The notes: generated from the letters alone by a model not told the origin. A stretch of DNA of 64,000 bases from Myxococcales bacterium (GCA_021806645.1 JAJZQX010000012.1:73764-137763), one strand, 5' to 3'; shown: positions 12,862 to 56,881, counted from the first letter of the stretch. A program made the numbers and translations.

Positions 12862-12863
12862 CG

Positions 12864-13976: not shown

Positions 13977-14040
13977 CCCCGGGGCGCACGTGAAGACCAC
14001 TCAGCGCAGCTCCCGCATGGTGAACGACATGGCCGCAAGG

Positions 14041-39364: not shown

Positions 39365-39481
39365 GGAAGCTGCGATTCCGAGGGCGGATCCGGACTTGCG
39401 GCGGGCCGAACCATAGCCCAAGGCGGGCGCTGCGTGAACGAGGCGGCGGCCCGGCGACCCGGCGGGTCGCCGGCGCGGCGG

Positions 39482-40651: not shown

Positions 40652-40688
40652 TGAACCTCGGCGACGAGAGACGAAGCCCGCGCTCCCG

Positions 40689-42590
40689 TCAGTAGGAGAG
40701 CGAGCTGTGCGGCTTGCCGTGGCAGACCAGGGCGCAGGAACCCCCGCGCCCACCGCTGGCGGTGTAGCGCGGAGCGGCCTGGCCGGGCAACGCCTTCACC
40801 ACGTCGAGGTCGAAGTCCACGAGGTGGGCGTTGTTGGCCGGGGAGCCGACCAGCGAGGAGACGCCGTGGGCGTTGTGGCAGGCCGAGCATGGGGTGGGGA
40901 TGGCGCCGGCCAGCGTCGCGGAGGCGCCGGGCGAGACGTGGCCCTGGTGGAGCGGGAAGGAGGACTGCGTCGAGAGGACGGTCTCGCGCCTGTGGCACTT
41001 GTAGCAGAGCGCGTAGGCGACGGGGCTCTCCGGCGTGCCGTCCTGCGTCTGGTAGTTCCGCTCCAGCAAGGGGCGGTAGATGGAGCCGTGCGGCCCGCGC
41101 GGACCGGTGCCGCCGCTGGCCCGCGTGTCGTCGGAGGCGTGGCAGTCGGAGCAGTAGATGACCGATGACGCCGTGAGCGGGGCGATCAGGCTCGGCACCA
41201 CCGGGTTGCGGCCGGGTCCGATGACCGGGTGGGCGGAAGCGCCGCTCGGCTCGAAGACGCGGCGCAGGTTCACCTCGGCCACGGCCCGCCGCGGGGAGCC
41301 GGCGCCCAGCGCGGCGCGCGCCTGCGGCTGGTTGGCGCTGTCGGCGTGGCACTTGAAGCAGACCTCGTATTCGTACCTGGCGGGGTCGGCCCGGCGCCCG
41401 GTCCGATCGACGCCCCAGGTGCCGGCCATGGCACCCTGGATGGCCGGGGCGACCGCCGCCCTGGCTCCGGTGGCCTGGTGCGGTTCGTGGCAATCGACGC
41501 AGGTGACGTGGCGAGCGGCCGACGGCGAGGTCTCTGGGAGGCGGACGGCACGGTCCGGTCCCTCGGCCCGGTCGTGGACGGTCGTGCCGGTGATGGGGGC
41601 GGCGTGGGCGGATGGGCGGAGCGTGGCGCCGCGGATGTCGGCCCTGGCGTGCTGGCCGTCGTGGCACGCCAGGCACATGCCGTCGTCGCCGAGATCGGTC
41701 GGGCGCACCAGCCGGCCGCGCTTGTCTCCATTGTGCGGCACGTGGCACGCGGCGCAGCGCAGGTCGGCCAGCGTGGTGGAGGCTCCGGTCACGGGATCGC
41801 TGATGGTCCTGGTCGAGGTCAGGTGGGACGCGTCGGGCGACTCCAGGCGCGCGGCGTCGTGGCAGGTGAGGCAGAGCTCGGCGCGGCGCATGCTCTTGAC
41901 CAGGAACTGGCCCTCGCCGGTCACCGGGAGCCGCTCCCGGTGAGGGTCGTGGCAGGCGACGCACTGCAACTGGTTGGTCCGGTCGAGCCGGACCGGATCG
42001 TCCGGCGGCGGCGGGTGGGAGGTCGCCGACGGCGCCGGCACGAAGGAGACGGGGTGGGTCCCGCGCAGGTCGGTGCCGAGGTTGGCGCGGTGGCCGGCAG
42101 GGAGCCTGCCGCCGGGAGCGTTGCCGCGCAGCTGGATCAGCCGGGTGCGGGTCTGGCCGAGGGCGATGGTCCCGTCGTGGCACGAGAGGCAGATCCGCGA
42201 GGCTCCGGTGGGGCGGGAGGTGGTGCGGGCGCTGGTGGTGCTGCTCGTGTAGGGGATGATCGGAGCGGACTCGGCCGGGCGCCCATCGGCATGCTCGCCG
42301 CCGTGCGGCACATGGCAGAAGACGCAGGCGTTGGCCTCCACGTCCGACTTGAAGGGGCCAGGGCCGCTGGTCGAGAGGTCGTGCTTGCTGCCGATGACGC
42401 CGAGCGGCGCCGCGCCGGCGCGCGGCGCGACCTGTTGGGCCGCCGGCGAGGGGGGGCGCCGGGGTCGGGCGGAGGCGCCGGCCGGCGCGGGGGACGCCGT
42501 GGCGGGCGGGCGCGGCGCGACGGGCTCGCGGGCCGGAAGGTCCGGGTTGATCGGCGCCGCGAGGGCGGTCAGCAGGATCAGCAGCTTCAT
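40689..42590 (-). CDS. Multihaem c-type cytochrome (11 CXXCH plus a C-terminal CX3CH) with a Pro/Ala-rich N-terminal linker
   Basis: Signal-like MKLLILLTALAA. First motif GSKHDLS...CVFCHVPHGG, then CLSCH, CVACH, CLTCH, CAACH, CLACH, CVDCH, CFKCH, CSDCH, CYKCH, CSACH, and CALVCH (nt 40719-40736). Confidence 0.85.
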   Translation of the reverse strand: MKLLILLTALAAPINPDLPAREPVAPRPPATASPAPAGASARPRRPPSPAAQQVAPRAGAAPLGVIGSKHDLSTSGPGPFKSDVEANACVFCHVPHGGEHADGRPAESAPIIPYTSSTTSARTTSRPTGASRICLSCHDGTIALGQTRTRLIQLRGNAPGGRLPAGHRANLGTDLRGTHPVSFVPAPSATSHPPPPDDPVRLDRTNQLQCVACHDPHRERLPVTGEGQFLVKSMRRAELCLTCHDAARLESPDASHLTSTRTISDPVTGASTTLADLRCAACHVPHNGDKRGRLVRPTDLGDDGMCLACHDGQHARADIRGATLRPSAHAAPITGTTVHDRAEGPDRAVRLPETSPSAARHVTCVDCHEPHQATGARAAVAPAIQGAMAGTWGVDRTGRRADPARYEYEVCFKCHADSANQPQARAALGAGSPRRAVAEVNLRRVFEPSGASAHPVIGPGRNPVVPSLIAPLTASSVIYCSDCHASDDTRASGGTGPRGPHGSIYRPLLERNYQTQDGTPESPVAYALCYKCHRRETVLSTQSSFPLHQGHVSPGASATLAGAIPTPCSACHNAHGVSSLVGSPANNAHLVDFDLDVVKALPGQAAPRYTASGGRGGSCALVCHGKPHSSLSY

Positions 42591-43603
42591 GGCCTGTCTC
42601 CAGTGAACCTGTACGTTTCGACGCGGCGGTGCTGGCCGTCGGCTACCACCAGCAGGTCGCCGGCGATGGCCACCCCGGCCGGCATGGACAGCTGGCCCGG
42701 GCCGTCACCGATCCCCCCGGCGGCATAGATGAACCTGCCGTCAGCCTCGAACGCCAGCACCAGGCCGCGCTGCGTGTCGGTCACGTAGATCCGGCCAGCG
42801 GCGTCCACCGCCACGGCCTTGGGGCGGGAGAACCGGCCGCCGTCGTCGCCGGCCTCGCCGAAGCTGGAGAGCAGGGTGCCGTCCGGCCCGAACCGCTTCA
42901 CCTTGTAGTTGAGGGCGTCGATCACCAGCAGCGTGCCGTCGGGGGCCGCCGCCAGGCCGGTGGGGAAGTTGAAGCCGGCGTCGCCGTCGCCGCGGGCTCC
43001 GAAGCGCAGGACCTCCGCGCCCGAGGCGTCGTAGGCCACCACCTGGTGGCGCGGGGGGTCGGCGACGTAGAGCCGCTCGCCGAGGAGGGCCAGGGCGGTG
43101 GGACGCTCCAGCGTGCCGCTGCCCCAGCGGTCGCAGCGGCCGTCGGGCGCGATCCGGACCACCACGGCGAGGCCGGCGTCGGCCACGTAGACGACGCCGC
43201 CGGGGCCGATGGTCACGGCCATGGGCGCGCCCCACTCTCCGTCGCGGCAGCGGACCGGCTCGAAGGCCCCGCTGGCCAGGTCGGCGCGGAGCACGCCCGG
43301 TGCGTCGGGATCGGCCACGTAGACCGCGCCGGGGAGGGCCGCCACGCCGAAGGGACGGACCAGCACCGGCTCGCCGGCGCCCGGCTCGAGGCCCAGGATG
43401 GCGTCCACGACGCGGCGGAAGCCGGAGCGCTGGTCGGGCCGATCCGGGTCCGGGAGCGAGCGTTCGAAGATCAGGCGGGCGGCGGCCGGCGGCCGGGGCC
43501 AGGCCGGAGGGGGCCCGGGCGCGACGCGCGGGGTCGTGGTGCCGGCGCAGGCGGTCGCCCACAGGGCGAAGGCGATGACGGCCGGGAGGAGGGGTGCGCG
43601 CAT
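42587..43603 (-). CDS. NHL-repeat six-bladed beta-propeller lipoprotein
   Basis: Lipobox LWATAC. Blades such as AVYVADPDAPGVLRADL, VVYVADAGLAVVVRI, RLYVADPPRHQVVAYD, TLLVIDALNYKVKRF, RIYVTDTQRGLVLAFE, DLLVVADGQHRRVETY. ATGA-type overlap with the downstream cytochrome gene. Confidence 0.8.
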   Translation of the reverse strand: MRAPLLPAVIAFALWATACAGTTTPRVAPGPPPAWPRPPAAARLIFERSLPDPDRPDQRSGFRRVVDAILGLEPGAGEPVLVRPFGVAALPGAVYVADPDAPGVLRADLASGAFEPVRCRDGEWGAPMAVTIGPGGVVYVADAGLAVVVRIAPDGRCDRWGSGTLERPTALALLGERLYVADPPRHQVVAYDASGAEVLRFGARGDGDAGFNFPTGLAAAPDGTLLVIDALNYKVKRFGPDGTLLSSFGEAGDDGGRFSRPKAVAVDAAGRIYVTDTQRGLVLAFEADGRFIYAAGGIGDGPGQLSMPAGVAIAGDLLVVADGQHRRVETYRFTGDRP

Positions 43604-43607
43604 GTGG

Positions 43608-45338
43608 CTAGCGCCGGAACGACCTCGTGACCGAGAAGAAGAGCAGGTTCTGGTTGCCGGTGGCCCCGCCCCGGGTGCCTCCGCTGGAGAGCTGGTCGTA
43701 GAGGGAGAACTGGAAGGCGCCGATGTAGTAGGCCAGGTTGAGGCTGAGGCCGCGTTCCCACTGGGTCGGGCGGCCGGGCGTCGTCACCGACGAGTACCGG
43801 CCCGCCAGGGAGAGGAAGAGATTGAAGGCGGTGGGGACCGTGGCGGTGATGGTCCCGTAGGTGGCCCTGGTGTTGAAGTCCAGCGGCACCAGGGAGCCGG
43901 GCACGGAACCCGGAGTCAGGAACTCCGAGGCCTGGTCGTTCATGCCCGCGTTGAGCGCGAGCGCATATCCACTCCGGTAGGCCTGCGCCGTGAGCAGGGC
44001 GCTGGTGTAGCCGCTGGTGCCGAAGGTCGGGGATTCGCTGCGGGAGTAACCGACGTCGAGCCGGGAGGTGAACGACCAGCCGAAGGGGAGGCCGGAGGCG
44101 CTGGCGGTGCCCCGGAGCGAGGTGCGGGTGCCGGCGGCGGCGTTGGAGTTGTCGTCGTGGCTGGCGCTGAATCCGGCGCTGCCGTACCAGGACCCGATTG
44201 GCCGCGAAACGTCGATGCCACCGCCGACGCCGTAGGCGGCCTGGCTGCCCCCGGCCTCGGGCTGGAGGAGGCCGGCGCTCGCGGCGGCCGTGGCCGAGAT
44301 CAGGTACCCGCCACCCTGCCTGGCCCAGCGCGCGCTGGCGCCCACCGCCTCGCCGCGGTCTCTCGTCGCCACCGTCCCGACGCGCGAGTCCGCGACCGAC
44401 ACCGATGCGCTGAGGCCGTAGCCCCACGCCGGCGTGAGCTGGTGGTTCCCGTACGCGCTGACCGAATGGCCGATATTCTGGCGCAGCAGGCCGCCAGGGG
44501 CCTCGAAGAGCGAGTTGGAGTAGGAGTAGCCACCGCCGGCGCTCAGGCTCTGGCTGGCCTTCCACTGCGTCCAGGCCGAGACGTACTCGTTGTCCACTCT
44601 TGGGTTGAGCGGGTTCTCCACCGTGGGAAGGCGCAGCGTGTATGAGGCCGCCACCTGGGCGGTGGCGTTGGTGGCGAGCTGGGCCTGGGCGCGGACCGAG
44701 CCGACGTGGGTGCGGTAGTTGGTCTCGGCGTAGTCGCCGGCGGCCCACCGGGTATCGTAGGTCAGCGAGTAGTTGAGCCCTTCGACTGATTGTGAGAGAT
44801 CGGCTCTCAGGGTGGTGTCGCTCGACCTGACCGGGGCCACCCCGATGCTCCGGTTGGTAGAATCGGTCTGGGAAGCCGAGGTGGTCAAGGTCGGCGTGCC
44901 GACGGTGCCGATGATCACCATCCCGGATCGAGAGTCAACCCGGGTCGAGCCGGTCCGGCCGCCGGCCCGGTCAGCGGAGAAGTCGATGGTGGTGCGGCTC
45001 GCCCCTGCGTTCACGTTCACCGGCGTGTTGCGGAGGGCGCCCAGCGACAGCCGGTAGTTGAGGGCGTCGCTGGCGCTGCCCCCCTGGGCCCGGTAGCCCA
45101 GGTAGGAGGCCGAGGCGCCGAGGTCGAGGACGCCCGGACCGAAGACGGTGGCGTCGAGGGCCAGGCTCCCCGTGAACCAGAGCTGGTCGTGGCCGGAGCG
45201 TGGCATGGTGTCGGACCATGCGTCAATTCGCTGCAGGCTGAGGCCGGCCGAGCCGGACAGGCCGACGCCGGCGGCGGCCGGCCCAGCCGCGGCGAGCAGG
45301 GTGAGCCACAGCAGCGCTCGCGGGGTCATGGCCCTCAT
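43608..45338 (-). CDS. Large (~576 aa) predicted outer-membrane beta-barrel protein
   Basis: ATG at 45338 (MRAMTPRALLWLTLLAAAGPAAAG signal). G/S/T/Y/A-rich sequence with alternating hydrophobic pattern. ATGA overlap with the upstream gene. No domain recognised with certainty. Confidence 0.6.
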   Translation of the reverse strand: MRAMTPRALLWLTLLAAAGPAAAGVGLSGSAGLSLQRIDAWSDTMPRSGHDQLWFTGSLALDATVFGPGVLDLGASASYLGYRAQGGSASDALNYRLSLGALRNTPVNVNAGASRTTIDFSADRAGGRTGSTRVDSRSGMVIIGTVGTPTLTTSASQTDSTNRSIGVAPVRSSDTTLRADLSQSVEGLNYSLTYDTRWAAGDYAETNYRTHVGSVRAQAQLATNATAQVAASYTLRLPTVENPLNPRVDNEYVSAWTQWKASQSLSAGGGYSYSNSLFEAPGGLLRQNIGHSVSAYGNHQLTPAWGYGLSASVSVADSRVGTVATRDRGEAVGASARWARQGGGYLISATAAASAGLLQPEAGGSQAAYGVGGGIDVSRPIGSWYGSAGFSASHDDNSNAAAGTRTSLRGTASASGLPFGWSFTSRLDVGYSRSESPTFGTSGYTSALLTAQAYRSGYALALNAGMNDQASEFLTPGSVPGSLVPLDFNTRATYGTITATVPTAFNLFLSLAGRYSSVTTPGRPTQWERGLSLNLAYYIGAFQFSLYDQLSSGGTRGGATGNQNLLFFSVTRSFRR

Positions 45339-47761
45339 GGCTTCGCTCCACCGCCGACGACCGTGATGGGCACGTCGACCACGTACTCGGCGTCGGCCGG
45401 GGGGAACAGCCAGGACGCCGAGCTGGCCTTGAGACAGGCCTCCAGCTCGTCGCCCCCGAGGTCGCCGTTGCCGACCTTGGTCCCGGTGACCTTGCCGGTC
45501 GGGGCGAGGTTGACCCGAAGCCTCCCCTCGGCGCCGGTCAGTCCCCGGCGCACCATCTGCTCCGAGACGCACCGCTCGATGGCCGGCTGGACCGCCACCA
45601 CCGCGTCGCGGAGCTGGCGCCTGGCGGTCTCGCCGCCCGCCAGCATGTCGCCGGCCGCCACCTCGCCGCCGCGGTCTCCGCGGGCCTGGCCGGCGGCGCG
45701 CAGCGCGGAGACCACCACGTCCACGCCTTGCGCGCCGGGCCGGGTGGTGATGCGCGTGACCACCTGCTTCGCCGGCAGCTTGCCGATGCCGACGACCAGG
45801 GCCTTCACCTCCTGGGCGCGCCGGTTGGCCTCGTTCATCAGGCCCGGCTCCCTGGCGCGGGCCCAGACCAGCACCTCGCAGTTCTCGCGGGCTGCCAGCC
45901 TGGCGATGCCGTCGATGGCCTCGCGGTCCAGCTCGGAGAGCGCGGAGGCCGGGGTGGCGAAGGTCACCACGGTGGCGGCGGCCACGACCTTCTCGACGGC
46001 GCCGCCGGGGTCGTACGTCTCGCGCCGGGCGTTGCCGGCGCCGGTCGCGGCGCCGCCCGCCTTCATGATCGCGGTGGGTGACTTGACGACCATGACGAAG
46101 ACCGACCTGTCCTTCGGGACCGGTGGGAGCGGCACGCCCGGCGCCGGCGCCCTGGTGGCGCCGCGCCGCTGCTCGGCGGCGCGCTGCTCGAGCAGGGTGA
46201 GCCGCTCGGCGCGGACGTCGAGGCGGCGCTGCCAGGTGTCGAGGCGCTGTGCGCGGGCATGGAGCTGGCGGGTGCTGGCGTCCACGCGCTCGCCGCGCGC
46301 GACCAGGCGGCTCTCCATGGCGGCCAGCATCCGCTGGCGCGCGGCCAGGGCCTTTCGGCGGAACTCGCCCTGGCGCGCCGGGGTCTTCTCGGCGCCGGCC
46401 TGGGCCAGCAGCCGCTCGGCCTCCTTCCGCTCGGCCTGTTCGCGGGCCTGGGCGTCACGCTCGGAGCCCAGCGCGGCCTCCCTGGTCGGGTTGAAGCCGC
46501 GCTCCTGGGCCGCCAGTTGCCGCTCGGCCGCGCCCAGCTCGGACTCCTGCGACTCGAGCTGGCGCTGCGGGCCGGTGGGGGCGCCGCGGACCACGATGCG
46601 CCGCTCGCGGGCCTCGAGCTGGGCCTCACGGGCCGCCAGCGCCCGCTCGCGCTCGTCGAGCTTGCGGGCGTCGGCGTCGAGGGTGGCCTCGTCGGCGTCG
46701 AGCGACTCCTCGGTGGCGCGGAGCCGCTTCAGCCGGGCCTCGGCCTGGAGTTCCTGGTCGCGAAGCTGGGCGGCGAGGACGTCGTCGGCGCTCGGGACGG
46801 GGACGCGTGGTGGCGCCGCCGCCAGCGAGCCGGCCTGCGCGGGCGGCGTGTACGGAGCGTACTGCCGGTGGCGAGGCTGGCCCAGTCGGCCCGGGTCGGC
46901 GCCGTGGATCCTGAGCCGGAACCGGGGGCGGTCGCCGAGGGCGAGGGACGGCGCGGCCTCCTCTTCGTCGGGCGGTGGCGCGACCGGCGCGGCGGCCGCC
47001 ACGGTGGCGCGGCGCTTCGGCACCCCATGGAACCCGAACCCGAGCGAGACCCGGACCCCCTGCTCGTCGGGGAGGTAGCTGGCGCCGAGCGACAGGCCGA
47101 CCCGCTCGGACAGGTCCCAGCGGATGGCGGCGCCAAGCAGGCTGCCCCGCGGGTTGCGGACCGCCTCGATCACCGCTTCCAGCCCGCTCCGGTGCCGGAG
47201 CTGGGCGGCCAGGCCGGCGGTCGGGCCGGCGGGGCCGGCGGCCTGCTTCTCGTAACCGGCGAAGCCGGCCAGCTTGAGGAGGCCCACCTGCGCGGTGGAG
47301 AGGATGAGGCGGCCGCCGCCGGCGCCGTTGTCGTTGAAGCGATCGAGGTAGCCGTCCACGGCCAGCCCGGGGCGCCAGCCAGAGGCGGCGACGAGGCCGG
47401 CCTTGAGGGCGGCGCCGAAGAGCATGGGGGCCGGGCGGGGATCGCCGGGGAAGCCGGACTCGCGCGCCGACACGCCCAGCTCCAGGCGGCCCAGGCCGAC
47501 GCCGAGTGAAAGAGGCAAGGGGCCGACGCGGTCCGTGGAGCCGGCGGCGTGGTCCCAGCCGAGCTCGAAGCCCAGCATGGCCGTCGAGGGTTCGATCACC
47601 TCGGCGGAGGGCACGTCGAGGAGGCCCGCCTCGCCCTGCCGGGTCGGGAAGTGGCCGGCCAGCGCCGCTTGCGGCGCCACCAGCAAGGCGAGGACGACGA
47701 GAGGTCCAGCGGTCGGGAGGCGGCTCAACTCACGCCCTCCCGTCGCCGCCACGCTCGCCAT
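45335..47761 (-). CDS. Large envelope protein: N-terminal barrel-like domain, long Glu/Arg/Ala coiled coil, OmpA-like region and an AgmX/PglI-type C-terminal domain
   Basis: Signal LVVLALLVAPQAALAG. Coiled-coil repeats (EARLKRLRATEESLDADEATLDADARKLDERERALAAREAQLEARERR...). C-terminus ...VQPAIERCVSEQM...GKVTGTKV...LEACLKASSASWLFPP. Confidence 0.65.
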   Translation of the reverse strand: MASVAATGGRELSRLPTAGPLVVLALLVAPQAALAGHFPTRQGEAGLLDVPSAEVIEPSTAMLGFELGWDHAAGSTDRVGPLPLSLGVGLGRLELGVSARESGFPGDPRPAPMLFGAALKAGLVAASGWRPGLAVDGYLDRFNDNGAGGGRLILSTAQVGLLKLAGFAGYEKQAAGPAGPTAGLAAQLRHRSGLEAVIEAVRNPRGSLLGAAIRWDLSERVGLSLGASYLPDEQGVRVSLGFGFHGVPKRRATVAAAAPVAPPPDEEEAAPSLALGDRPRFRLRIHGADPGRLGQPRHRQYAPYTPPAQAGSLAAAPPRVPVPSADDVLAAQLRDQELQAEARLKRLRATEESLDADEATLDADARKLDERERALAAREAQLEARERRIVVRGAPTGPQRQLESQESELGAAERQLAAQERGFNPTREAALGSERDAQAREQAERKEAERLLAQAGAEKTPARQGEFRRKALAARQRMLAAMESRLVARGERVDASTRQLHARAQRLDTWQRRLDVRAERLTLLEQRAAEQRRGATRAPAPGVPLPPVPKDRSVFVMVVKSPTAIMKAGGAATGAGNARRETYDPGGAVEKVVAAATVVTFATPASALSELDREAIDGIARLAARENCEVLVWARAREPGLMNEANRRAQEVKALVVGIGKLPAKQVVTRITTRPGAQGVDVVVSALRAAGQARGDRGGEVAAGDMLAGGETARRQLRDAVVAVQPAIERCVSEQMVRRGLTGAEGRLRVNLAPTGKVTGTKVGNGDLGGDELEACLKASSASWLFPPADAEYVVDVPITVVGGGAKP

Positions 47762-48170
47762 CGCTGGCGGCGCCGCGGGTGAGGCCGAACTGGTTGAGGG
47801 TCCGTTCGACCGACCGGACGCTCACGGCGTGGCCGAGCCGAAGGAGGTCGCCGGCGATCAGCGCGGCGCTGCGGTTGGGCTCGTGGAGGCGGGCCCGGAC
47901 GATGAACCGGACCACCTCGAGCGGACGGCGCCAGGCCGTCCGCGGGCCGGGTGGGCGCGAGAAGAGCCCTTCGAGCCCCTCTTCGCGGAACCGGCGGAGC
48001 TTTTCGTAGTAGGTGCTGCGGGACCGCCCGAACTCGGAGAGGACCTCGTCAAGCGGCCGCCCGCTCGTCTCCCCTTCCATGAGCATGAGGAGATCCGACC
48101 CGGCCTCGTCGTCGCGACGGAGCGGGAGCAGTCCCCCGGGACCTCGAATGGCGTGGAGTTCGGTCTTCAC
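47730..48170 (-). CDS. Helix-turn-helix protein resembling the N-terminal DNA-binding domain of IS481/IS630-type transposases. No catalytic domain is present.
   Basis: LDEVLSEFGRSRSTYYEKLRRFREEGLEGL...AALIAGDLLRLGHAVSVRSVERTL. It overlaps the start of the next gene by 32 nt. Confidence 0.55.
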   Translation of the reverse strand: MKTELHAIRGPGGLLPLRRDDEAGSDLLMLMEGETSGRPLDEVLSEFGRSRSTYYEKLRRFREEGLEGLFSRPPGPRTAWRRPLEVVRFIVRARLHEPNRSAALIAGDLLRLGHAVSVRSVERTLNQFGLTRGAASDGERGGDGRA

Positions 48171-48229
48171 GGTCAGGACAGAGGGGTTGGGGTGGGGCGA
48201 CGATATCCAGCGGATTGTGGCGGGCGCTG

Positions 48230-48271
48230 GAGCGGAAAGAAGCGCGGGGCGCCGGTTGCACGCCCCGCGCT
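48230..48271 (-). terminator. Intrinsic terminator downstream of the tetrahaem cytochrome gene
   Basis: Perfect 10-bp GC stem (GCGCGGGGCG, 48242-48251, pairing with CGCCCCGCGC, 48261-48270), 9-nt loop, followed on the minus strand by TTCTTTCC. Confidence 0.6.
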
Positions 48272-48281
48272 CGGGTGCCGC

Positions 48282-49046
48282 CTACTTGATGTGGCAGCCG
48301 CCGCAGCGGCCGTTGGTGACCGAGGTCGGGACGCGGAGGAAGAACGGGTTCGCGCTGGCCACGTTCTCGGTGTGGGGCTCGTGGCAGGTGCCGCACTCCA
48401 CCTGGAAGGCTCCGCCGGAATTGGCGAAGAGCTTCAGGTAGGCGCCGCCTGCCGACGCGCCGGACACGCACTCCGGGATGCCGGCCTGACAGCCGGCGGC
48501 GGTGGCCGTGCCGTACTGCGCGGTGACGGCGCTGGAGCCGACTTGCCCGGCGAAGGGGATGCCGACCGGGTGCTGGCCGTTGAGGTTGGTGTACGCGAGG
48601 TTGCTGGCGAGGAAAACGTTGCCGCCTGACACGGTCACGTTGCCGGTCGCGGTCGCGCTGATGGTGGCGGCGACCTGCGTGTAGGTGCCGAACTTGTTGA
48701 CGGTGGTGTTCATGGCCACCGAACCGTCATGGCAGGAGAGGCACTTCTGCGAGGCGGAGCCGAGGGCGGCGTTGGTGGCCGGAAGCGGCGTGCCGTTCGC
48801 GGTTGCGGTCGGAGACGTGAAGCCGGTCCCGGTCGGCGCCGGGCGGGCCCAGAGCGTGCCCTGGGTGGTGTTGGCGTTGTGCGGCATGTGGCAGAAGCGG
48901 CACATGTCCACGCCGGCGTCGGTGAAGTAGACGTTGCCCTGAGTGTTGGTCGAGGTCAGGTTGTGCTTGGTGTTGGAGATGGCGGCGGTGGCCATGGTCG
49001 GGATGGCGAGGGCCACCACGAAGAGGACCTTGAGAGCGTTGCGCAT
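48282..49046 (-). CDS. Small (254 aa) tetrahaem c-type cytochrome, OmcE/OmcS-like candidate filament subunit
   Basis: Signal MRNALKVLFVVALAIPTMATA. Four CXXCH motifs: CRFCH, CLSCH, CGTCH, CGGCH. Exactly 8 His in the mature part. First motif SNTKHNLTS...CRFCHMPHNA. The last motif sits at the extreme C-terminus (RCGGCHIK*). The protein is T/A/G/N-rich. Confidence 0.85.
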   Translation of the reverse strand: MRNALKVLFVVALAIPTMATAAISNTKHNLTSTNTQGNVYFTDAGVDMCRFCHMPHNANTTQGTLWARPAPTGTGFTSPTATANGTPLPATNAALGSASQKCLSCHDGSVAMNTTVNKFGTYTQVAATISATATGNVTVSGGNVFLASNLAYTNLNGQHPVGIPFAGQVGSSAVTAQYGTATAAGCQAGIPECVSGASAGGAYLKLFANSGGAFQVECGTCHEPHTENVASANPFFLRVPTSVTNGRCGGCHIK

Positions 49047-49170
49047 GAGAGACTTCCTCCGTTGTTCGGGGTGATCCCCGGCTGACCGGGCCGGGAGGCG
49101 ATGGACTCCCGCCCGGACCGTTGATTCGTGGGCGCCATGCTGGCCGCGCTGTCGGTGATGGCCTGGACCT

Positions 49171-49187
49171 TAGCAACCCCGATGCCA
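49171..49187 (-). promoter_or_regulatory. Sigma54 (-24/-12) promoter candidate for the tetrahaem cytochrome gene
   Basis: The minus strand reads TGGCAT-CGGGG-TTGCTA, with consensus spacing for TGGCAC-N5-TTGCW. The predicted leader is ~115 nt and ends in GGAGGAAG before the ATG. Confidence 0.6.
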
Positions 49188-49287
49188 GCCTTGCCGCGCG
49201 AAACTCCTCGGCTTTTCGCTTCCCGCCGGCGACCCGATTGGGCTCGAACACCCATCGATGGGGCATCTGCCCCACGCGAAGAGGACG

Positions 49288-50319
49288 CTATTGCTGGGCC
49301 GGGACCTCGACGAACTCGTAGACGTTGATGCGGGGCAACTGGGCGCTCTGCTCCCCGACGAAGATCCGCTTCCCGTCCGGGTGGATGGCGATGGGGCCCG
49401 GCATGTCGAGGTACTCGAGCATGTTGACCTTGCCGCCGAAGTACATCAGCAGCTGGTTCTTCTGGTTGAACATCTGGACGGTCGCGGTCTCGCCGTCCAC
49501 GACGTAGAGGATGCCGCGCGGGTCCACGGCCACGCCCTTGGGCCGGGCGAACTGCCCCGGGCCGATGCCGGACTCGCCGAAGAAGCGGATCAGGCCGCCT
49601 TCCGGGTCGAAGACCTGGATCCTGAAGTTGAGCATGTCCGAGACGTAGAGGTTGCCGTCCTTGTCGAGCGCCAGGTAGCCGGGGAAGTTGAACTGGCCTG
49701 GCGCGGTGCCGCGCGCGCCGATGGTCCGCAGCAGCTTCCCGGCCGTGCTGTACACCAGCACCCGGTGGTTCTGCGACTCGGGGAAGGAGCCGTCGGTCAC
49801 GTAGACCAGCTGCCGCTTGCGATCGAGGGCCAGGGCCGTGGGGCGCTCGGCGTCGCCGCCGAACTCGCGGAGGAACCGGCCGTCTGTGGAGAAGACCCGG
49901 ACCCGCCGCGCCGGGGGCTCGGAGACGTAGACGTTCCCCTCCTGGTCCACCGCCACGCCGAACGGCTGCATCATGCCGAAGTCGGGGGCGAAGCGATCGG
50001 CCCGGCCCTGGGCGAAGTCGAAGCGGACCACCTGGCCTCGCGGCTGGTCGGTCACGTAGAGGAGCTGCCCGTCCGGCGAGAAGGCGAAGCCGGAGGGCTG
50101 CTCGAAGGTGATGGGCTGGGTGCCGAGCAGGGCGCGCTGGAAGCCGCCCCAGCCGGTCTTCTCGATGTCGGCCCCCGAGGTGATGGCCTGTACGAAGCGG
50201 ATCCGGGCCGGGTCCGGGGGTGGGGGCCAGCGGACCTTGGCGCCCTTGAGCGGGGCCACCGCGCAGGCCGAGGCGATGAGCATCAGGGAGACGGCGGTGA
50301 GGCGCAGATCACGCGGCAT
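49288..50319 (-). CDS. NHL-repeat six-bladed beta-propeller lipoprotein (paralog of 42587..43603)
   Basis: Lipobox LIASAC. Blades LLYVTDQPRGQVVRFDF, NVYVSEPPARRVRVFS, LVYVTDGS...HRVLVYS, NLYVSDMLNFRIQVFD, ILYVVDGETATVQMFN. It shares the N-terminal WPPPP..ARIRF motif with the other NHL lipoprotein. Confidence 0.85.
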   Translation of the reverse strand: MPRDLRLTAVSLMLIASACAVAPLKGAKVRWPPPPDPARIRFVQAITSGADIEKTGWGGFQRALLGTQPITFEQPSGFAFSPDGQLLYVTDQPRGQVVRFDFAQGRADRFAPDFGMMQPFGVAVDQEGNVYVSEPPARRVRVFSTDGRFLREFGGDAERPTALALDRKRQLVYVTDGSFPESQNHRVLVYSTAGKLLRTIGARGTAPGQFNFPGYLALDKDGNLYVSDMLNFRIQVFDPEGGLIRFFGESGIGPGQFARPKGVAVDPRGILYVVDGETATVQMFNQKNQLLMYFGGKVNMLEYLDMPGPIAIHPDGKRIFVGEQSAQLPRINVYEFVEVPAQQ

Positions 50320-50342
50320 GGGGCGGTGCTCCTTGGGACGGG

Positions 50343-51953
50343 CTACGGATGGCCGGACGAGGAGGCGCGCCGGACGGCCTCCTCGTCGATGGAGATCCTG
50401 GCGGAGGCTCGGAGCCGGGCGAGGAGCTGCTCAACCGCGCGCTGGCCGGCCTCGGCCCGCCAGCGGGCCTCGACGCCGGCGCGGACCTCGGCGAGGTCGG
50501 GGGTCCTCTCCGGCCGGATGGTCTCGCAGCGGAAGAGGTACTGCACCGGTCCGGCCGCGACCGGGCCAACCAGCTCGCCGGCCGGCGCGGTCTTGACCGC
50601 GCGGGCCAGGGCGGATTGAGCCGCGTCCCTCTCCATGGCGGCGAGGGCGGCCCATGAGACGTCGCCCAGGTCACCGCCCAGGGCGGCGCTGGCCTGGTCG
50701 ATGCTGGCGGCGCGGGCCACGGCCGGGAAGGGCTCGCCGGCCTCCAGCCGCCGGCGCACGGCCGCGGCCGCGGCGGCGTCGGCGACCACCACGGCGCGGC
50801 ACCGCCGGGTGGTGGGGATCCGGTAGTCGGCGGCGTGGCGGCGCAGGTACTCGGCCTCCTCGGGCCCGGTGGGCGCCTTGACAGCGGCCCGCATCGAGAG
50901 GGTCAGGGCCGCCGCCATCGCCTCGCGGCCGGCCGGCGCCAGCTCGGCCAGCACGGCCGGGCTCCGATCGGTGCCGGCGCGCACGGCATCCGCCTTCAAC
51001 ACCAGGTCGTCCACGAGCGCCCCGGCCATCTCCACCTTCACCGCCCCGCCGAAGGCGTGCCCCTGGGGCCGCCCGCGGAAGGCGTCGTCGATGAAGTCGA
51101 GCAGCTCCCCGTACCGAACCTGGCGCTTGCCGACGGTGGCCACCACCCGGTCCGACCGGGCGCGGTCCACGGAGGGGCCGGTGGAGAGGATGAAGGCGTC
51201 GTCGATGGTCACCTTCTCGCGGGCCCGCAGCTGGTCGAGGTAATGGCGGCGCGCTGAACCGCGGAGCTGCTGCCTGGCGAAGCCCGTCAACCGCTCGCGG
51301 TTGGCCTGGAACTCGGCCTCGGTCCCGATTGCGCGGGCGGAGACCTGCAGCACGGCCCACCCCAGCTCGAGCGGCACCGGCCCCACCACCTGGTCGAGCG
51401 GCGCCTCGAAGGCGGCCCTGGCCACGCCCTTGTCGAGCTGGGCGCGGCTGCGCAGCCCGAGCTCGCCGCCGGTGCGGACCGTCTCCGGGTCGAGCGAGGC
51501 CGTGGCCTCGGCGGTGAAGGTGCCGCCGGCCTTGAGGCGATCGCGGGCCCGCTCCGCCGCGACCTTGGTGGGCAGCACCAGGAGGCGGAGACGGACCGAG
51601 TCGGCGCCCATGTGGAACACCTCGCGAAGGGTGGCGTCGTCGGGGTTGATCCCCTCCATAGCCGCGTCGAGGTGGCGCCGGGCGGCGATCCGCAGGCGGG
51701 TCTCGTCGAGCTGGCCCGCCAGCATCGGAGGCAGCGATAGCCGGAGCCGCTCCGCCTCGGCGGCCAGCAGCACCTCGTCCACCAGGCCTTGCGTGACGAC
51801 CTCGGCGGAGACCTGCTCGCCGCGCTGGCGGCGGGCCTCGAGCCGGGCCCGCAGTTCCCTCGCGGAGATGGAGACGCCGTCCACGGTGGCCACCGGGGCG
51901 CCGCCGGCGGGCGCCGCGGCCAGCAGCAGCGAGAGCAGCAGGGTGAAGCTCAA
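50343..51953 (-). CDS. SurA-like periplasmic chaperone / peptidyl-prolyl isomerase with two parvulin-like domains
   Basis: Signal MSFTLLLSLLLAAAPAGGA. SurA-N-like region (ATVDGVSISARELRARLE). Two rotamase-like segments (...GGELGLRSRAQLDKGVARAAFEAP...GWAVLQV and ...GGDLGDVSWAAL...VQYLFRCE). Confidence 0.7.
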   Translation of the reverse strand: MSFTLLLSLLLAAAPAGGAPVATVDGVSISARELRARLEARRQRGEQVSAEVVTQGLVDEVLLAAEAERLRLSLPPMLAGQLDETRLRIAARRHLDAAMEGINPDDATLREVFHMGADSVRLRLLVLPTKVAAERARDRLKAGGTFTAEATASLDPETVRTGGELGLRSRAQLDKGVARAAFEAPLDQVVGPVPLELGWAVLQVSARAIGTEAEFQANRERLTGFARQQLRGSARRHYLDQLRAREKVTIDDAFILSTGPSVDRARSDRVVATVGKRQVRYGELLDFIDDAFRGRPQGHAFGGAVKVEMAGALVDDLVLKADAVRAGTDRSPAVLAELAPAGREAMAAALTLSMRAAVKAPTGPEEAEYLRRHAADYRIPTTRRCRAVVVADAAAAAAVRRRLEAGEPFPAVARAASIDQASAALGGDLGDVSWAALAAMERDAAQSALARAVKTAPAGELVGPVAAGPVQYLFRCETIRPERTPDLAEVRAGVEARWRAEAGQRAVEQLLARLRASARISIDEEAVRRASSSGHP

Positions 51954-51991
51954 GGTGTTTCTCCTCGACCTGGAAGCGGAGCGGCTGGAGC

Positions 51992-53698
51992 CTAGCGCGT
52001 CGGCGGCGCGCCGTCGCCGGATCCGGGACCAGCACCTCCCGAGCCCGAACCGCCGGAGCCGCCACCGGTCCCGGAGCCCGCGCCACCCCCAGCGGCGCCG
52101 GCCGCCGGGCCGGTGCCGGGCTTGCGGGAGCGCGAGATGACGTTCTTGAGCCCCGGGTTCTTGCCGGTCTTGTCGCCGTGGCAGCCGTCACACGACTCCA
52201 TGGTGGTGTTCCCCATGTAGAAGAAGTTGGGGAAGTCGGAGCCGTGCGGGTTGTGGCAGCTGGCGCAGGAGAACGGCCGGTCCGGCTTGCGCGGGTCGTT
52301 CAGGCCTGGGCCGCCGACGGTGTGGCCGCGCGCGACGATGGTGGTGACGTGCCTTCCGTCCTTCTGCTCGGCGTGGCAGCCGGTGCAGAGGTCGTTGGTC
52401 TTCTTGGCCAGCAGGAAGCGGTTGGCGGAGCCGTGCGGGTCGTGGCAGCCGGTGCAGCCGTACCGCTCCAGCGCCGCGTGCTTCACCTTGCCCGAGTCAA
52501 CGGGCGTCTGGTGGCAGGCGTAGCAGGCCTTCTTGCCCTCGCCGCCCTTCAGCAGGTTCCGGTTGGCCCCGCCGTGAGGGAGGTGGCACTGGTCGCACCC
52601 CTTCTCCAGCGGCTTGTGGATCACCTTGCGGCCGGTCAGGTCGTCCTGGTGGCAGGTGAAGCAGGTGCCGGCCGAGGTCGCCGCGGAGATCAGCTTGGGC
52701 CGGTCGGAGCTGTGCGGGTCGTGGCAGACGGCGCAGTCCCCCGCGATGACCGCGGTGTGCGGGAACTTCGCCTTGTCCTGCCGCTCGTGGCAGCCGTAGC
52801 AGAGGTCGCGCGCGCTCTTCTTGAGCAGCTTGAGGTTGTCGCCGGAGTGGCCGACCACGTGGCAGACGCCACAGTCGTTCTTCTGCGTGATGACCTTGTG
52901 GACCACCGGCCTGGAGAGGTCCAGCCGGTATCCGGCCGAGGGGGTGCCCGTGCCAGAAGGGGCCTTGGTGTCGTGGCACTTCAGGCAGAAGGCGGCGCCG
53001 GCGGCGCGGGTCGAGAACGGGTTCTCGCTGCCGTGCGGGCTGTGGCAGCCGAGGCAGCGCCCCTCGGCGACCGGCGCGTGGTGGACCGGCTTTGGCAGCA
53101 GCGGCTCGATCTCGTGGCACTCCAGGCAGAGTTCCTGGCTGGGCAGCCGGACCAGCTTCGGGTAGGCCGACGAGTGGGCCTCGTGGCAGGAGAGGCAGGA
53201 CCCCTGGCGGACCGCGGTGTGGACCGACTTCGACTGGTCCAGCCGCTTGTGGCAGTTGTAGCAGAGGTCCGGCTCGGTCTTGACCAGCGACCACGCGGTC
53301 GAGGTCTTCGACAGGCACTTGCCGCGCTCGGCCGGCGAGGGGCGGTGACAGGCGGTGCAGTCGTTCTTCACCAGCGCCGGGTGCAGGTAGCGCTTGGCCG
53401 CGACGGCGGCGTGGCAGCTGGAGCAGCGCTCGGCGGTCGGGGCGGGGGCGATGGCGCCGGCCGGCTTGGCCACCGTGCCGTCGCGGAGGACCGGCGGTGG
53501 AGGCAGGGGCACGCTGGTGTCGCGGACTCCCGGCGGGGGTGGCGTGGTGGCCGGAGCGGATCTGGCGGCGACCGGGGTCTTCGACTCCCTGCTCGGCGCT
53601 TGGGCCATGGCCGCGGGTACGATCGCGAACGAGGCGGCGAGGAGGACCGCCCTGCGAGCGGAAACGGCGAGCGAAACGGGGCTCTTGACGAAGCTCAT
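51992..53698 (-). CDS. 17-haem c-type cytochrome built from c7/c3-like repeats, with a Gly/Ser-rich C-terminal tail
   Basis: Signal MSFVKSPVSLAVSARRAVLLAASFAIVPAAMA. I counted 17 CXXCH motifs (CSSCH ... CDGCH) spaced every ~25-35 aa. The tail is GAAGGGAGSGTGGGSGGSGSGGAGPGSGDG. Confidence 0.85.
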   Translation of the reverse strand: MSFVKSPVSLAVSARRAVLLAASFAIVPAAMAQAPSRESKTPVAARSAPATTPPPPGVRDTSVPLPPPPVLRDGTVAKPAGAIAPAPTAERCSSCHAAVAAKRYLHPALVKNDCTACHRPSPAERGKCLSKTSTAWSLVKTEPDLCYNCHKRLDQSKSVHTAVRQGSCLSCHEAHSSAYPKLVRLPSQELCLECHEIEPLLPKPVHHAPVAEGRCLGCHSPHGSENPFSTRAAGAAFCLKCHDTKAPSGTGTPSAGYRLDLSRPVVHKVITQKNDCGVCHVVGHSGDNLKLLKKSARDLCYGCHERQDKAKFPHTAVIAGDCAVCHDPHSSDRPKLISAATSAGTCFTCHQDDLTGRKVIHKPLEKGCDQCHLPHGGANRNLLKGGEGKKACYACHQTPVDSGKVKHAALERYGCTGCHDPHGSANRFLLAKKTNDLCTGCHAEQKDGRHVTTIVARGHTVGGPGLNDPRKPDRPFSCASCHNPHGSDFPNFFYMGNTTMESCDGCHGDKTGKNPGLKNVISRSRKPGTGPAAGAAGGGAGSGTGGGSGGSGSGGAGPGSGDGAPPTR

Positions 53699-53713
53699 GT
53701 GCAGCGCGCCATG

Positions 53714-53729
53714 TGCAAGCCGGGTGCCG
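53714..53729 (-). promoter_or_regulatory. Sigma54-type promoter candidate for the 17-haem operon. It implies a very short leader.
   Basis: The minus strand reads CGGCAC-CCGGC-TTGCA with correct GG/GC spacing. The predicted transcription start is only ~5 nt upstream of the ATG at 53698, which lowers confidence. Confidence 0.4.
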
Positions 53730-53870
53730 CTAAGCCCCTGTAGGGACTGCGCGGCTTCGGGCGGCCGCGGAGCGCCAGTCCACGAGGGGATGAGCGGTCT
53801 TGGGCCGGAAGGTCGCGCACCGTCACCCCTCGTCCCTCACGCAGCGGTTTCGCCGGGCGGAGTCGCCGGG

Positions 53871-53901
53871 GTGAAATCACGCAAGCGTTGCGTGTTTTCA
53901 C
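53871..53901. promoter_or_regulatory. 31-bp near-perfect palindrome. Candidate enhancer (UAS) for the adjacent NtrC-family activator.
   Basis: GTGAAATCACGCAAG-C-GTTGCGTGTTTTCAC, with 13 of 15 arm positions complementary. It sits ~158 bp upstream of the -24 element at 53728, in the divergent intergenic region. Confidence 0.5.
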
Positions 53902-53999
53902 CCGCTTGTCCTGGGGAATCTGGCGCCCGCGACGGCGGGCTTCCAACAGGCCGGTGTCTCTGAGAAGATGGCGGTGTTCCTTAGCAGACCAGCCCCGGG

Positions 54000-55501
54000 A
54001 TGCCCACCCTGAGATCGCTCTTCGGCCGGCTCGACGCCAGCCTTCGCGCTCGCATTCTGATTCCAACCGCCGTCCTCTTCGGCCTGACGCTTACGGCCAT
54101 GGTGATCGGCGCCGTCCAGTCGTACGGCACCGGCATCGAGCGAGGACGGCAGGAGCGGGCCGAGATCTTCGCCCACATGGTGGCGTCCGGCGTCTCCAAC
54201 GTGATGCTCTCGGGCCAGCCGCAGGCGGTGCCGCGGCTGCTCGAGTCGCTGGTCTCCCACCGCGGCGACCTGGTGACTGCCTCGCTGATCGCGCCGAGCG
54301 GCCTGGTCTCCATCTCCTCGGATGCCAGCTACATCGGGGCCCGCCCGTGGGGCCGGCCCGATCGGTTCGCCGACACCACCGTGGTGACCGAGCCGGGCGG
54401 CCTCGAGAACCAGTACGCGGTGATCCAGCCGGTCGTCAACGCCGTCTCCTGCAACCGCTGCCACGAGGGGACGGCACCGGTGCGCGGCTGGCTGGAGCTC
54501 CGCTTCTCGCGTGACCCGGTGGCGGAGGCGAAGCGGGAGCTGGCCGGGACGCTGGCGCTCGCCGCTGGCGCCGCGCTGGTGGCCCTGCTCGCCATCGCGC
54601 TCTGGCTGCTGGGGCGGGAGGCGGTCGGGCCGCTGCAGCGGCTGGTGGCGGTCATGCGGCGCGCCGAGGCCGGTGAGCTGACGGTCGTGGCCGACGAGGG
54701 GAGGACCGACGAGCTGGGCGTGGCGGCTCGCGGCTTCGACGCCACGCTGGCCGCGCTGCGGCGCAGCCAGGCCGAGCTGGAGGCCTTCTACCAGGAGCGG
54801 ATGGTCCGGGCCGATCGCTTCGCGGCCGTCGGCGAGGTGGCCACCGGCCTGGCGCACGAGATCAAGAACCCGCTGGCGGGCCTCTCCGGCGCGCTGGAGC
54901 TGCTGGCCGAGGACCTGGCCACGCACCCGCGTCACGCCGAGGTGGTGGGCGAGATGCGCCACCAGGTGCACCGGCTAACCCACACCATGGAGAGCCTGCT
55001 CTCCTTCGCCCGCCCACCCAAGGCGACGCTCCGCTCCACCGAGGTGAACGCCACGCTGGAGAAGGTGCTCTTCCTCATCCGCCAGCAGTGCCGCGGCACG
55101 CCGGTGGAGGTGGAGGCCAGGCTGGCCGGCGCGCTGCCGCTGGTGCTGGCCGACCCCTCGCAGCTGGAGCAGGTCTTCCTCAACCTCTGCCTCAACGCGG
55201 TGCAGGCCATGAGCGGCCGCGCCGGCTCGCTCCGCGTCGGCTCCAGGCTCGGCGAGGCCGGGCTGGTGGTGGTGGAGGTCGCCGACGACGGGCCGGGCAT
55301 CCCGGCCGATCTGCGCGAGCAGCTCTTCAAGCCGTTCTTCACCACCAAGCGGGAGGGGAACGGCCTCGGCCTGGCCATCTCGGCGCGGATCATTGCGGAA
55401 CATGGCGGCCACATCGGGTATAGGTGCCCGCCGGAAGGCGGTACCATCTTCACCGTGACCCTCCAGGAATCCCAGGCGCCCCGGGGCGCCGACCAGGTCG
55501 C

Positions 55502-55505
<4 letters not shown>
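54000..55505 (+). CDS. NtrB-type sensor histidine kinase (HAMP, HisKA, HATPase_c) with a periplasmic CXXCH motif
   Basis: Two TM segments flank a ~130-aa periplasmic domain containing SCNRCHEG (nt 54450-54464). H-box GLAHEIKNPLAG. N/G boxes (NLCLNAVQAM, DDGPGI, GNGLGLAI). Confidence 0.85.

Positions 55506-56881
<1,376 letters not shown>

Follow-up and report, generated by a model that had tools for sequence, protein, structure and literature searches.

A sigma54-regulated locus predicted to encode an OmcE-type extracellular cytochrome filament in an Anaeromyxobacter-like Myxococcota bacterium

Introduction

Whether a small tetrahaem cytochrome of a myxobacterium could be the repeating unit of an extracellular cytochrome filament, and which neighbouring genes would then serve that filament, is the question raised by a stretch of 64,000 nucleotides (nt) from a Myxococcales bacterium (GCA_021806645.1 JAJZQX010000012.1:73764-137763), called here, at its full length, the window and numbered from its first letter. 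An earlier reading of this DNA, made from the sequence alone and referred to below as the original prediction, had drawn attention to four open reading frames (ORFs) on the minus strand between positions 48282 and 53698. These were taken to encode an OmcE/OmcS-like tetrahaem candidate nanowire subunit and, upstream of it, an NHL-propeller lipoprotein, a SurA-like peptidyl-prolyl isomerase (PPIase) and a 17-haem cytochrome, and all four are found at the positions given. The analysis reported here favours, with a probability of about 0.7, a reading of the locus as an OmcE-type system for extracellular cytochrome filaments that is regulated through sigma54 and belongs to an uncultured, Anaeromyxobacter-like member of the Myxococcota. 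The family, its gene neighbourhood and the association with chaperones and propellers are already published; the Myxococcota lineage is a new member.

Results

Homology of the tetrahaem protein to OmcE

The gene on which the interpretation turns, designated omcE below, is the following:

48282-49046, minus strand: OmcE-family tetrahaem cytochrome, candidate filament subunit, 254 amino acids (aa), identified by sequence homology in the Protein Data Bank (PDB) and by ligand conservation

A sequence search of all PDB chains with this protein returned just two significant matches, each full length, and both are solved OmcE subunits: 7TFS_A of Geobacter sulfurreducens (GSU0618; E=6.3e-18, window residues 9-254 against chain residues 12-232) and 9YUQ_N of Desulfuromonas soudanensis WTL (DSOUD_2954; E=1e-14), which forms bundled filaments. 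A three-way alignment gives the window protein 35% identity to 7TFS and 39% to 9YUQ, its closest solved relative by this measure; the two solved subunits are 41-45% identical to one another. All 8 His and all 8 Cys align, the non-motif His28 and His159 included, as do the LW, HDG and HP(V/I) contexts. In the reverse direction, OmcE of G. sulfurreducens matches a profile made from the homologues of the window protein with E=5.5e-52, and across an alignment of 62 homologues the eight haem Cys and eight ligand His are either invariant or at least 90% conserved.

The architecture of the protein, re-read from the sequence, is as first described. It begins with a Sec-type signal peptide (MRNALKVLFVVALAIPTMATA, followed by A), read by eye from the hydrophobic N-terminus that ends ATA/A, and it carries four CXXCH motifs, starting at residues 49 (CRFCH, in the context CRFCHMPH, and thus of the CxxCHxxH form), 102, 218 and 248 (CGGCHIK, directly followed by the stop codon). 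There are exactly eight His (residues 28, 53, 56, 106, 159, 222, 225 and 252), all of them past the signal peptide, which suffice for four bis-His haems with zero surplus. Four CXXCH regions and four further ligand His are the published signature of the OmcE family (Petersen et al., bioRxiv 10.1101/2025.10.22.684050), and the window protein combines this signature with full-length homology, a signal peptide and a gene context that includes a barrel and propellers.

The original prediction had called the protein OmcE/OmcS-like, and it is the first half of this assignment that stands. The OmcS termini that it quoted agree with 6EF8, which begins FHSGGVAECEGCHTMHNS and has LCNKCHA at residues 399-405 of 407, but OmcS shares with the window protein just the N-terminal CxxCHxxH and the C-terminal position of the last motif; the window protein has four haems only, and OmcS (6EF8) gave no match to it in the PDB sequence search even at E<=10. 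The archaeal filament subunits PcECN (8E5F) and AvECN (8E5G), with which a comparison had also been proposed, likewise gave no match at E<=10, so that sequence homology places the protein in neither of these groups. Judged by its sequence, the window protein is OmcE-like and not OmcS-like.

Some features set the protein apart from solved OmcE subunits. G. sulfurreducens OmcE has 232 aa against 254 here (31-35% identity by alignment), with the last CXXCH at the C-terminus in both, and OmcE lacks an insertion of about 14 residues that is present in the window subunit. Neither 7TFS nor 9YUQ has the Cys186/Cys193 pair (CQAGIPEC; 48468-48491, minus strand), a subfamily-specific feature that 22 of the 23 closest homologues keep, as do 30 of 62 family members; it probably closes a surface loop through a disulphide. 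Five N-x-S/T sequons are also present in the protein.

The family to which the protein belongs is widespread. A profile search of 1.84 billion cluster representatives recovered 2,045 proteins at E<=1e-30 (representatives at 50% identity) and 5,149 at E<=1e-10, most of them single-domain proteins of 230-300 aa, and species-representative genomes, when scanned, yielded at least 487 loci from many phyla. The window was matched to a contig (GCA_027327715.1, DAHVYH010000060.1) of a metagenome-assembled genome (MAG). The nearest relatives of its locus lie in Anaeromyxobacter MAGs, on which the taxonomic placement of the host is based, and close homologues flanked by the same genes are found in Gallionella, Rhodocyclaceae, Sulfurimonas and relatives of Tenderiales.

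Composition and conservation of the gene cluster

The genes first singled out make up only half of a cluster that extends over about 18 kilobases (kb), from about 38657 to 56881. Its minus-strand features, apart from omcE and the regulatory sites treated below, are listed from 5' to 3':

51992-53698, minus strand: MHC568, periplasmic cytochrome of 568 aa with 17 CXXCH motifs and 34 His (Pfam/NCBIfam, motif count)
50343-51953, minus strand: SurA-like secreted PPIase, 536 aa (Pfam Rotamase_2 in two stretches, Rotamase, weak SurA_N)
49288-50319, minus strand: NHL1, NHL-repeat beta-propeller lipoprotein, 343 aa, lipobox IASAC (Pfam NHL, E=2e-24)
48240-48272, minus strand: GC-rich terminator-like hairpin of 13 base pairs directly 3' of the omcE stop, then a short U-tract (folding)
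47730-48170, minus strand: small helix-turn-helix (HTH) protein, 118-146 aa (Pfam HTH_28/HTH_32)
45335-47761, minus strand: p808, secreted candidate scaffold, 808 aa (NCBIfam NF033768, E=1e-6, below cutoff)
43608-45338, minus strand: p576, predicted outer-membrane beta-barrel of 576 aa with a signal peptide and 28 predicted strands (AlphaFold2, mean predicted local distance difference test, pLDDT, 83.6)
42587-43603, minus strand: NHL2, second NHL-repeat propeller lipoprotein, 338 aa, lipobox ATAC (Pfam NHL, E=6.5e-19)
40689-42590, minus strand: cytochrome of 633 aa with 11 CXXCH and one CX4CH motif, about 12 haems (BLAST, alignment, OmcE profile E=1.9e-30)
39482-40651, minus strand: GT4 glycosyltransferase (Pfam)
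38657-39364, minus strand: GT2 glycosyltransferase (Pfam)

The order cytochrome, double-parvulin PPIase, NHL, omcE, HTH, p808, barrel, NHL, cytochrome is kept in eight Myxococcota relatives (loci L003, L004, L005, L040 and L083-L086), where the scaffold has about 800 aa, the barrel 576 aa and the last cytochrome about 636 aa. Neighbourhood counts, which here and below cover the best 80 or so (79-82) of the at least 487 omcE-like loci, extend parts of this arrangement to other phyla. Most of the 80 best loci have an NHL gene directly 5' of the omcE-like gene, and so has G. sulfurreducens. In 40 of 81 loci a gene for a parvulin PPIase is found on the same strand at a distance of no more than 9 kb, mostly as the next gene downstream of the omcE-like gene, and upstream of it in Myxococcota and Campylobacterota.

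The three genes 5' of omcE are those that the original prediction described, as Pfam matches and motif counts confirm: a lipoprotein with an IASAC lipobox, a PPIase with two parvulin domains, and a 17-haem protein. The last of these consists of doubled-CXXCH repeats and a Gly/Ser-rich C-terminal tail, and its 34 His are exactly two per haem (34/17), as are those of a 330-aa Geobacter protein (16/8), so that every haem could be bis-His coordinated. BLAST aligns it with each of the two multihaem cytochromes encoded in the omcE cluster of G. sulfurreducens (locus L087, 6163-8282), and since these carry 9 and 8 motifs, and 9 + 8 = 17, a gene fusion in one lineage or a split in the other is a plausible origin of the difference.

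Directly 3' of omcE, the expectation of a strong terminator is borne out in part: the 76-nt stretch with the hairpin folds with -38.8 kcal/mol (z = -3.19), but the U-tract is short and a consensus terminator scan did not call the site. The HTH gene that follows, between omcE and the gene for p808, was considered as a possible insertion-sequence fragment, an explanation rejected on the grounds that the ORF holds the same position in six related loci (L004 and L083-L086 among them). The HTH protein is unusually conserved, being 93% identical in L004, whereas its neighbours there are 46-70% identical.

The stop codon of p808 overlaps the start of the barrel gene. The protein begins with a beta-rich domain, continues as a coiled coil of about 230 aa and ends in a weakly matched AgmX/PglI (TonB-C-like) domain; no PDB relative was found for it, and iterative searches detected it just in the Myxococcota loci L004, L005, L040 and L085-L086. 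It may be a scaffold spanning the periplasm or an energising link. The best Foldseek match of the p576 model is MtrB of the Mtr complex (6R2Q_B, E=1e-10), at a sequence identity of 10%, and the p576 family was likewise detected by iterative search in Myxococcota loci alone. Besides the GT4 and GT2 genes, a gene for a tetratricopeptide-repeat protein lies downstream of omcE.

Regulatory elements

The original prediction had assigned to omcE a sigma54-type promoter of its own, together with a structured leader. The elements that bear on this, and the two regulatory genes divergent from the cytochrome operon, are:

49172-49187, minus strand: sigma54 (-24/-12) promoter TGGCATCGGGGTTGCT (motif scan and conservation)
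49233-49276, minus strand: conserved block with the perfect palindrome TGGGGCA-GA-TGCCCCA (49259-49274), just past the NHL1 stop (six-locus alignment)
49047-49160, minus strand: 5' leader of about 113 nt from the inferred transcription start (conserved sequence)
53714-53729, minus strand: second, weaker sigma54-like site CGGCACCCGGCTTGCA (score 10/11)
54000-55505, plus strand: sensor histidine kinase, 501 aa (Pfam HAMP/HisKA/HATPase_c)
55502-56881, plus strand: NtrC-type sigma54 response regulator of 459 aa with receiver, AAA+ and Fis-type HTH domains (Pfam Sigma54_activat, E=6.5e-65; Response_reg; HTH_8)

The promoter TGGCATCGGGGTTGCT is the sole match to TGGCAY-N5-TTGCW in the 64-kb window, where 0.02 would be expected by chance; it has the GG-N10-GC elements of a sigma54 promoter in a form matching TGGCAC-N5-TTGCW, lies near an activator gene and is invariant in six relatives. 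Sites scoring at least 10/11 occur 70-170 nt 5' of the omcE-like start in 23 of 82 loci, as against 13 of 1536 control windows, and G. sulfurreducens omcE itself has a sigma54-like site, TGGCGTGCTGGTTGCA, about 93 nt 5' of the gene. Because the comparison of relatives and of loci agrees with the motif scan, the assignment is well supported, and the sequence evidence indicates that the promoter is real and conserved across phyla. The palindrome block, nearly invariant in six related loci and about 70-100 nt 5' of the promoter, is a plausible enhancer or binding site for the sigma54 activator.

The leader, which had been described as structured and of about 115 nt, is conserved in sequence (about 80% column identity across six loci), and a CCCCG...CGGAGG hairpin in it could hide the Shine-Dalgarno sequence. 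Its folding energy is ordinary (z = -0.79), the six relatives offer one compensatory pair (covariation term -0.08), and an Rfam search of positions 47500-54200 gave no match; the idea of a structured leader was accordingly dropped. The second site, CGGCACCCGGCTTGCA, lies 16 nt 5' of the MHC568 start codon, and its function is uncertain because almost no leader would remain: a near-leaderless transcript, a mis-set start codon and a chance match are all conceivable.

The sensor kinase has two transmembrane segments (hydrophobic stretches at about residues 18-40 and 180-210) and a single CXXCH (Cys151) in the periplasmic loop between them. This motif is kept in kinases beside omcE-like genes in L003, L040, L059 (Geobacter sp.) and L044, that is, in Myxococcota, a Geobacter MAG and a KSB1 MAG, and full-length homologues of the sigma54 activator lie near omcE-like genes in 12 loci of several phyla. 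The kinase is probably a redox sensor with a c-type haem that would act on the sigma54 switch. A 227-aa HisKA-only protein is encoded between the activator and ribosomal protein L3 (56942-57625, plus strand), and it may be an accessory phosphotransfer part of the same circuit.

Comparison with characterised clusters

In the work that surveyed OmcE homologues, those likely to form wires were defined by a gene for a large outer-membrane barrel and one for a beta-propeller lipoprotein, and the minimal omcE cluster comprised two multihaem cytochromes, two propeller lipoproteins, OmcE and a barrel, often followed in freshwater genera by GT2, GT4 or GT39 genes; five phyla were listed, Myxococcota not being among them (Petersen et al., bioRxiv 10.1101/2025.10.22.684050). 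The window provides this context in full, with the 568- and 633-aa cytochromes, NHL1 and NHL2, and the 576-aa barrel.

The synteny comparison with the Geobacter locus that the original prediction had called for shows that the two gene orders are collinear. The G. sulfurreducens locus (L087) contains purHDE, ppcA, resB, ccsB, the 9-haem and 8-haem cytochromes, an NHL lipoprotein, omcE, a 752-aa protein and glycosyltransferases, and it shares with the window the succession of multihaem cytochrome(s), NHL lipoprotein, omcE, large barrel and glycosyltransferases. Absent from it, in contrast to the window, are the PPIase, the 808-aa scaffold, the HTH gene and any cytochrome that carries an OmcE-like module; its 9-haem and 8-haem cytochromes stand in place of the single 17-haem protein of the window, and its 752-aa barrel has no sequence similarity to the 576-aa one. 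The D. soudanensis cluster lacks glycosyltransferases, unlike the window with its GT4 and GT2 genes, and the bundling loops vary even within the family.

Tenderiales, 'Ca. Tenderia electrophaga' among them, and some Gallionella have a cluster with almost the same components, called Uet, a proposed electron-uptake pathway composed of the tetrahaem UetA, the PPIase UetB, the 28-strand barrel UetC, the periplasmic c7-type cytochromes UetDEG, the NHL proteins UetH and UetI and the undecahaem cytochrome UetJ. All five classes (tetrahaem protein, PPIase, barrel, NHL protein and undecahaem-class cytochrome) are found in the window. The gene complement that had been thought different is therefore so with respect to G. 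sulfurreducens omcE, which has no PPIase, but is essentially the published Uet one. The arrangement differs: the conserved order uetA-B-C-D-E-F-G-H-I-J does not occur in the window, the Uet PPIase has one parvulin domain and lies 3' of uetA, whereas that of the window has two and lies 5' of omcE, and three separate trihaem c7 proteins and a cupredoxin stand against one 17-haem protein, with no separate c7 genes and no cupredoxin.

A Uet-type locus in a Thiohalomonadaceae MAG (L008, 9932-19281) allows the two systems to be connected. It encodes a 249-aa OmcE-like protein, 34% identical to the window subunit, followed by a SurA-like PPIase, a 582-aa protein without a Pfam match, c7 genes, two NHL genes and, after these, a cytochrome with an OmcE-like N-terminal module. 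Since its tetrahaem protein is homologous to the window subunit, UetA-type proteins are, on this alignment evidence, members of the OmcE family. The literature search found no paper linking UetA to OmcE, and the Uet and OmcE literatures searched do not cross-reference each other. Other gamma- and betaproteobacterial Uet-type clusters (L006, L012, L018, L022 and more, Gallionella included) also have an OmcE-family gene with a PPIase gene directly downstream of it.

Two further systems share the logic of the locus. The osc cluster of G. sulfurreducens likewise combines a subunit with a PPIase, channel-like proteins and a beta-propeller, but its subunit is the hexahaem OmcS, which has no detectable similarity to that of the window. 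In this cluster OscH has been assigned to folding, OscEFG to secretion and the beta-propeller OscD to morphology (Shen et al. 2025, Cell Chem Biol 32:239, as cited in PMC13194489). PPIases are reported to be needed for both OmcS and OmcZ wires. The earlier remark that the roles of NHL and PPIase neighbours are unknown is hence outdated, because the osc roles of the PPIase, OscEFG and the beta-propeller have been published. As in MtrCAB and other porin-cytochrome systems, a large barrel is encoded in the window together with periplasmic and putatively extracellular multihaem cytochromes; MtrB has 26 strands (literature figure) as against the 28 predicted in p576, and no MtrA or MtrC orthologue was found above curated cutoffs, the DmsE-family score being 177 against a cutoff of 192.

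A second protein with an OmcE-like module

The 633-aa cytochrome contains an OmcE-like module of its own. G. sulfurreducens OmcE matches its residues 58-244 (BLAST, E=1e-13 to 1e-16), and the module, at residues of about 64-245, keeps all eight ligand positions (H70, H93, H96, H138, H179, H214, H217 and H244); seven more CXXCH and one CX4CH motif follow. Standalone and fused OmcE-like genes occur together in at least 28 of 79 loci, those of Uet type included. A typical fused protein starts with the OmcE-like module and binds 10-11 haems in all. The polypeptide of a standalone subunit stops just after the fourth motif, whereas in the fused form it runs on, so that the module could take one end of a filament and prolong the haem chain. 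Neither multihaem cytochrome in the 20.7 kb examined around G. sulfurreducens omcE has such a module, which agrees with the statement of Petersen et al. (bioRxiv 10.1101/2025.10.22.684050) that the omcE operons of Desulfuromonadia encode no candidate for a tip or a stopper.

These observations suggest, tentatively and with the odds against it, that the 633-aa cytochrome and UetJ-class undecahaem cytochromes could be the missing end-piece of OmcE-type wires. The module would use the interface that normally joins subunits to dock at one end of the filament, where it would provide the His missing from the terminal haem. The protein would then act either as a base or nucleator, connecting the filament to the haem chain at the barrel, or as a tip, connecting it to minerals.

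Other haem-motif ORFs of the window

Four further multihaem cytochrome ORFs lie in the window, all on the plus strand:

3555-4607, plus strand: ORF of 350 aa with 9 haem motifs
11724-13976, plus strand: ORF of 750 aa with 5 haem motifs
13966-20571, plus strand: giant ORF of 2201 aa with 18 CXXCH, fibronectin-III domains and the Geobacter CxxxxCH...CXXCH motif
35325-35771, plus strand: tetrahaem ORF of 148 aa, overlapping a 420-aa ORF on the opposite strand

Discussion

The region covered by the window is an extracellular-electron-transfer island, and within it the omcE cluster is best explained as a filament system under sigma54 control. In OmcE filaments, the haems form a conserved parallel/T-shaped chain and one haem per subunit is completed by a His of the neighbouring subunit (7TFS, 9YUQ), and from the homology of the window subunit to these proteins, with all ligands kept, we infer that it would polymerise in the same manner. 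In the filament model, the haem of the sensor kinase would sense the redox state of the periplasm and lead to activation of the NtrC-type regulator, which would in turn drive strong transcription of omcE from the -24/-12 promoter. The subunit would be exported by the Sec pathway and loaded with four haems, while the PPIase would keep it competent for assembly, as OscH does for OmcS. It would then pass through or dock at the barrel, which, with the help of the propeller lipoproteins, would act as both export and anchoring site, and would polymerise head to tail, one His per subunit completing a haem of its neighbour as in 7TFS and 9YUQ, to give a continuous, insulated haem chain. The 17-haem protein would carry electrons over the periplasm, and the OmcE-like module of the 633-aa cytochrome may provide the junction between the cell-bound haem chain and the filament. 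In an Anaeromyxobacter-type host the filaments would probably serve to reduce Fe(III), Mn(IV) or similar acceptors outside the cell.

Several observations weigh against this model. Polymerisation is argued from homology at 35-39% identity, and filaments have been seen neither for this protein nor for any Myxococcota homologue. The OmcE family, with its 2,045 representatives at E<=1e-30, is very large, and Petersen et al. (bioRxiv 10.1101/2025.10.22.684050) caution that a homologue is likely to form wires only if its gene context is the right one. The AlphaFold2 model of the apo subunit, based on the 62-sequence alignment, reached a pLDDT of 57.8 and a predicted template modelling score (pTM) of 0.51 and gives no structural confirmation, and Foldseek returned zero matches in the PDB with this low-confidence model. 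A poor apo model is to be expected, because OmcE is about 80% coil and scaffolded by its haems, and the same failure of prediction has been published for OmcE; with the model poor and the Foldseek search empty, the homology of the subunit therefore rests on its sequence. Furthermore, the literature search did not reveal which His of OmcE is the inter-subunit donor. The profile of p576 shows no similarity in hhalign comparisons to the barrel of the Uet-type locus L008 (E=0.14) or to that of G. sulfurreducens (E=0.27), so the equivalence of these barrels rests on predicted fold, size and position. Lastly, whether Geobacter itself requires cytochrome filaments physiologically is a matter of dispute (PMC11077965).

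The alternative that survives best is that the locus encodes a Uet-type or porin-cytochrome conduit across the outer membrane, in which electrons would leave the 17-haem protein, cross the barrel and reach the 633- and 254-aa cytochromes at the cell surface, the tetrahaem protein being a monomeric cytochrome on the outer surface or associated with the barrel. Its parts list equals that of uetABCDEFGHIJ, a set modelled as a porin-cytochrome conduit with the extracellular tetrahaem UetA and the undecahaem UetJ; the barrel has its best structural match in MtrB, and polymers have been published for three Desulfuromonadia species and for none beyond. The pattern of eight His is, however, that of the solved filaments, and a monomer would be left with one under-coordinated haem and one idle conserved His. 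The authors of the Uet model moreover allowed for polymerisation of UetA or UetJ, and one locus could encode both a conduit and a filament that is anchored on it. We therefore regard a conduit with a monomeric tetrahaem protein as unlikely.

Somewhat less likely still is the use of the same filament or conduit machine for the uptake of electrons from Fe(II), minerals or cathodes, and not for the reduction of acceptors. The lineages that have close homologues flanked by the same genes (Gallionella, Rhodocyclaceae, Sulfurimonas and relatives of Tenderiales) speak for this possibility, Uet having been proposed as an uptake pathway there, and a chain of haems has no inherent direction, so that the sequence cannot settle the choice between uptake and reduction. 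Against it, no lithoautotrophic electron sink is indicated in the window, and the nearest relatives are Anaeromyxobacter MAGs, of a genus whose capacity for extracellular electron transfer is noted in the literature. Anaeromyxobacter is noted for respiring metals and electrodes.

An ordinary soluble periplasmic tetrahaem carrier of the c3, NrfB or CctA kind, merely sharing doubled CXXCH motifs with OmcE, would account for the generic Paired_CXXCH_1, c7 and c3 signals, at or below curated cutoffs, that are all Pfam and NCBIfam give for the protein, but it is very improbable given a match to OmcE that is full length and includes His28, His159 and the LW, HDG and HP(V/I) contexts, and given a conserved outer-membrane barrel and lipoprotein context that points to a role in the envelope or outside the cell.

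The filament reading of the locus, at its stated probability, adds an Anaeromyxobacter-like lineage of the Myxococcota to the organisms predicted to build OmcE-type wires, and bacteria of the Anaeromyxobacter type matter for iron cycling and for the reduction of metals and radionuclides in soil. Two points emerging from the comparison are not stated in the literature that was found: the separately named Uet and OmcE clusters have a homologous tetrahaem subunit, and a sigma54 promoter just 5' of the subunit gene recurs across phyla. The locus brings together a compact and full list of parts, namely a sensor, a sigma54 switch, the subunit, a PPIase, two propellers, a barrel, a scaffold and two large cytochromes, and, being compact and complete, it offers a good comparative test bed for the folding, secretion, anchoring and termination of wires. 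Should the end-piece proposal hold true, the Uet conduits of electron uptake and the OmcE nanowires of metal reducers would be one ancient machine.

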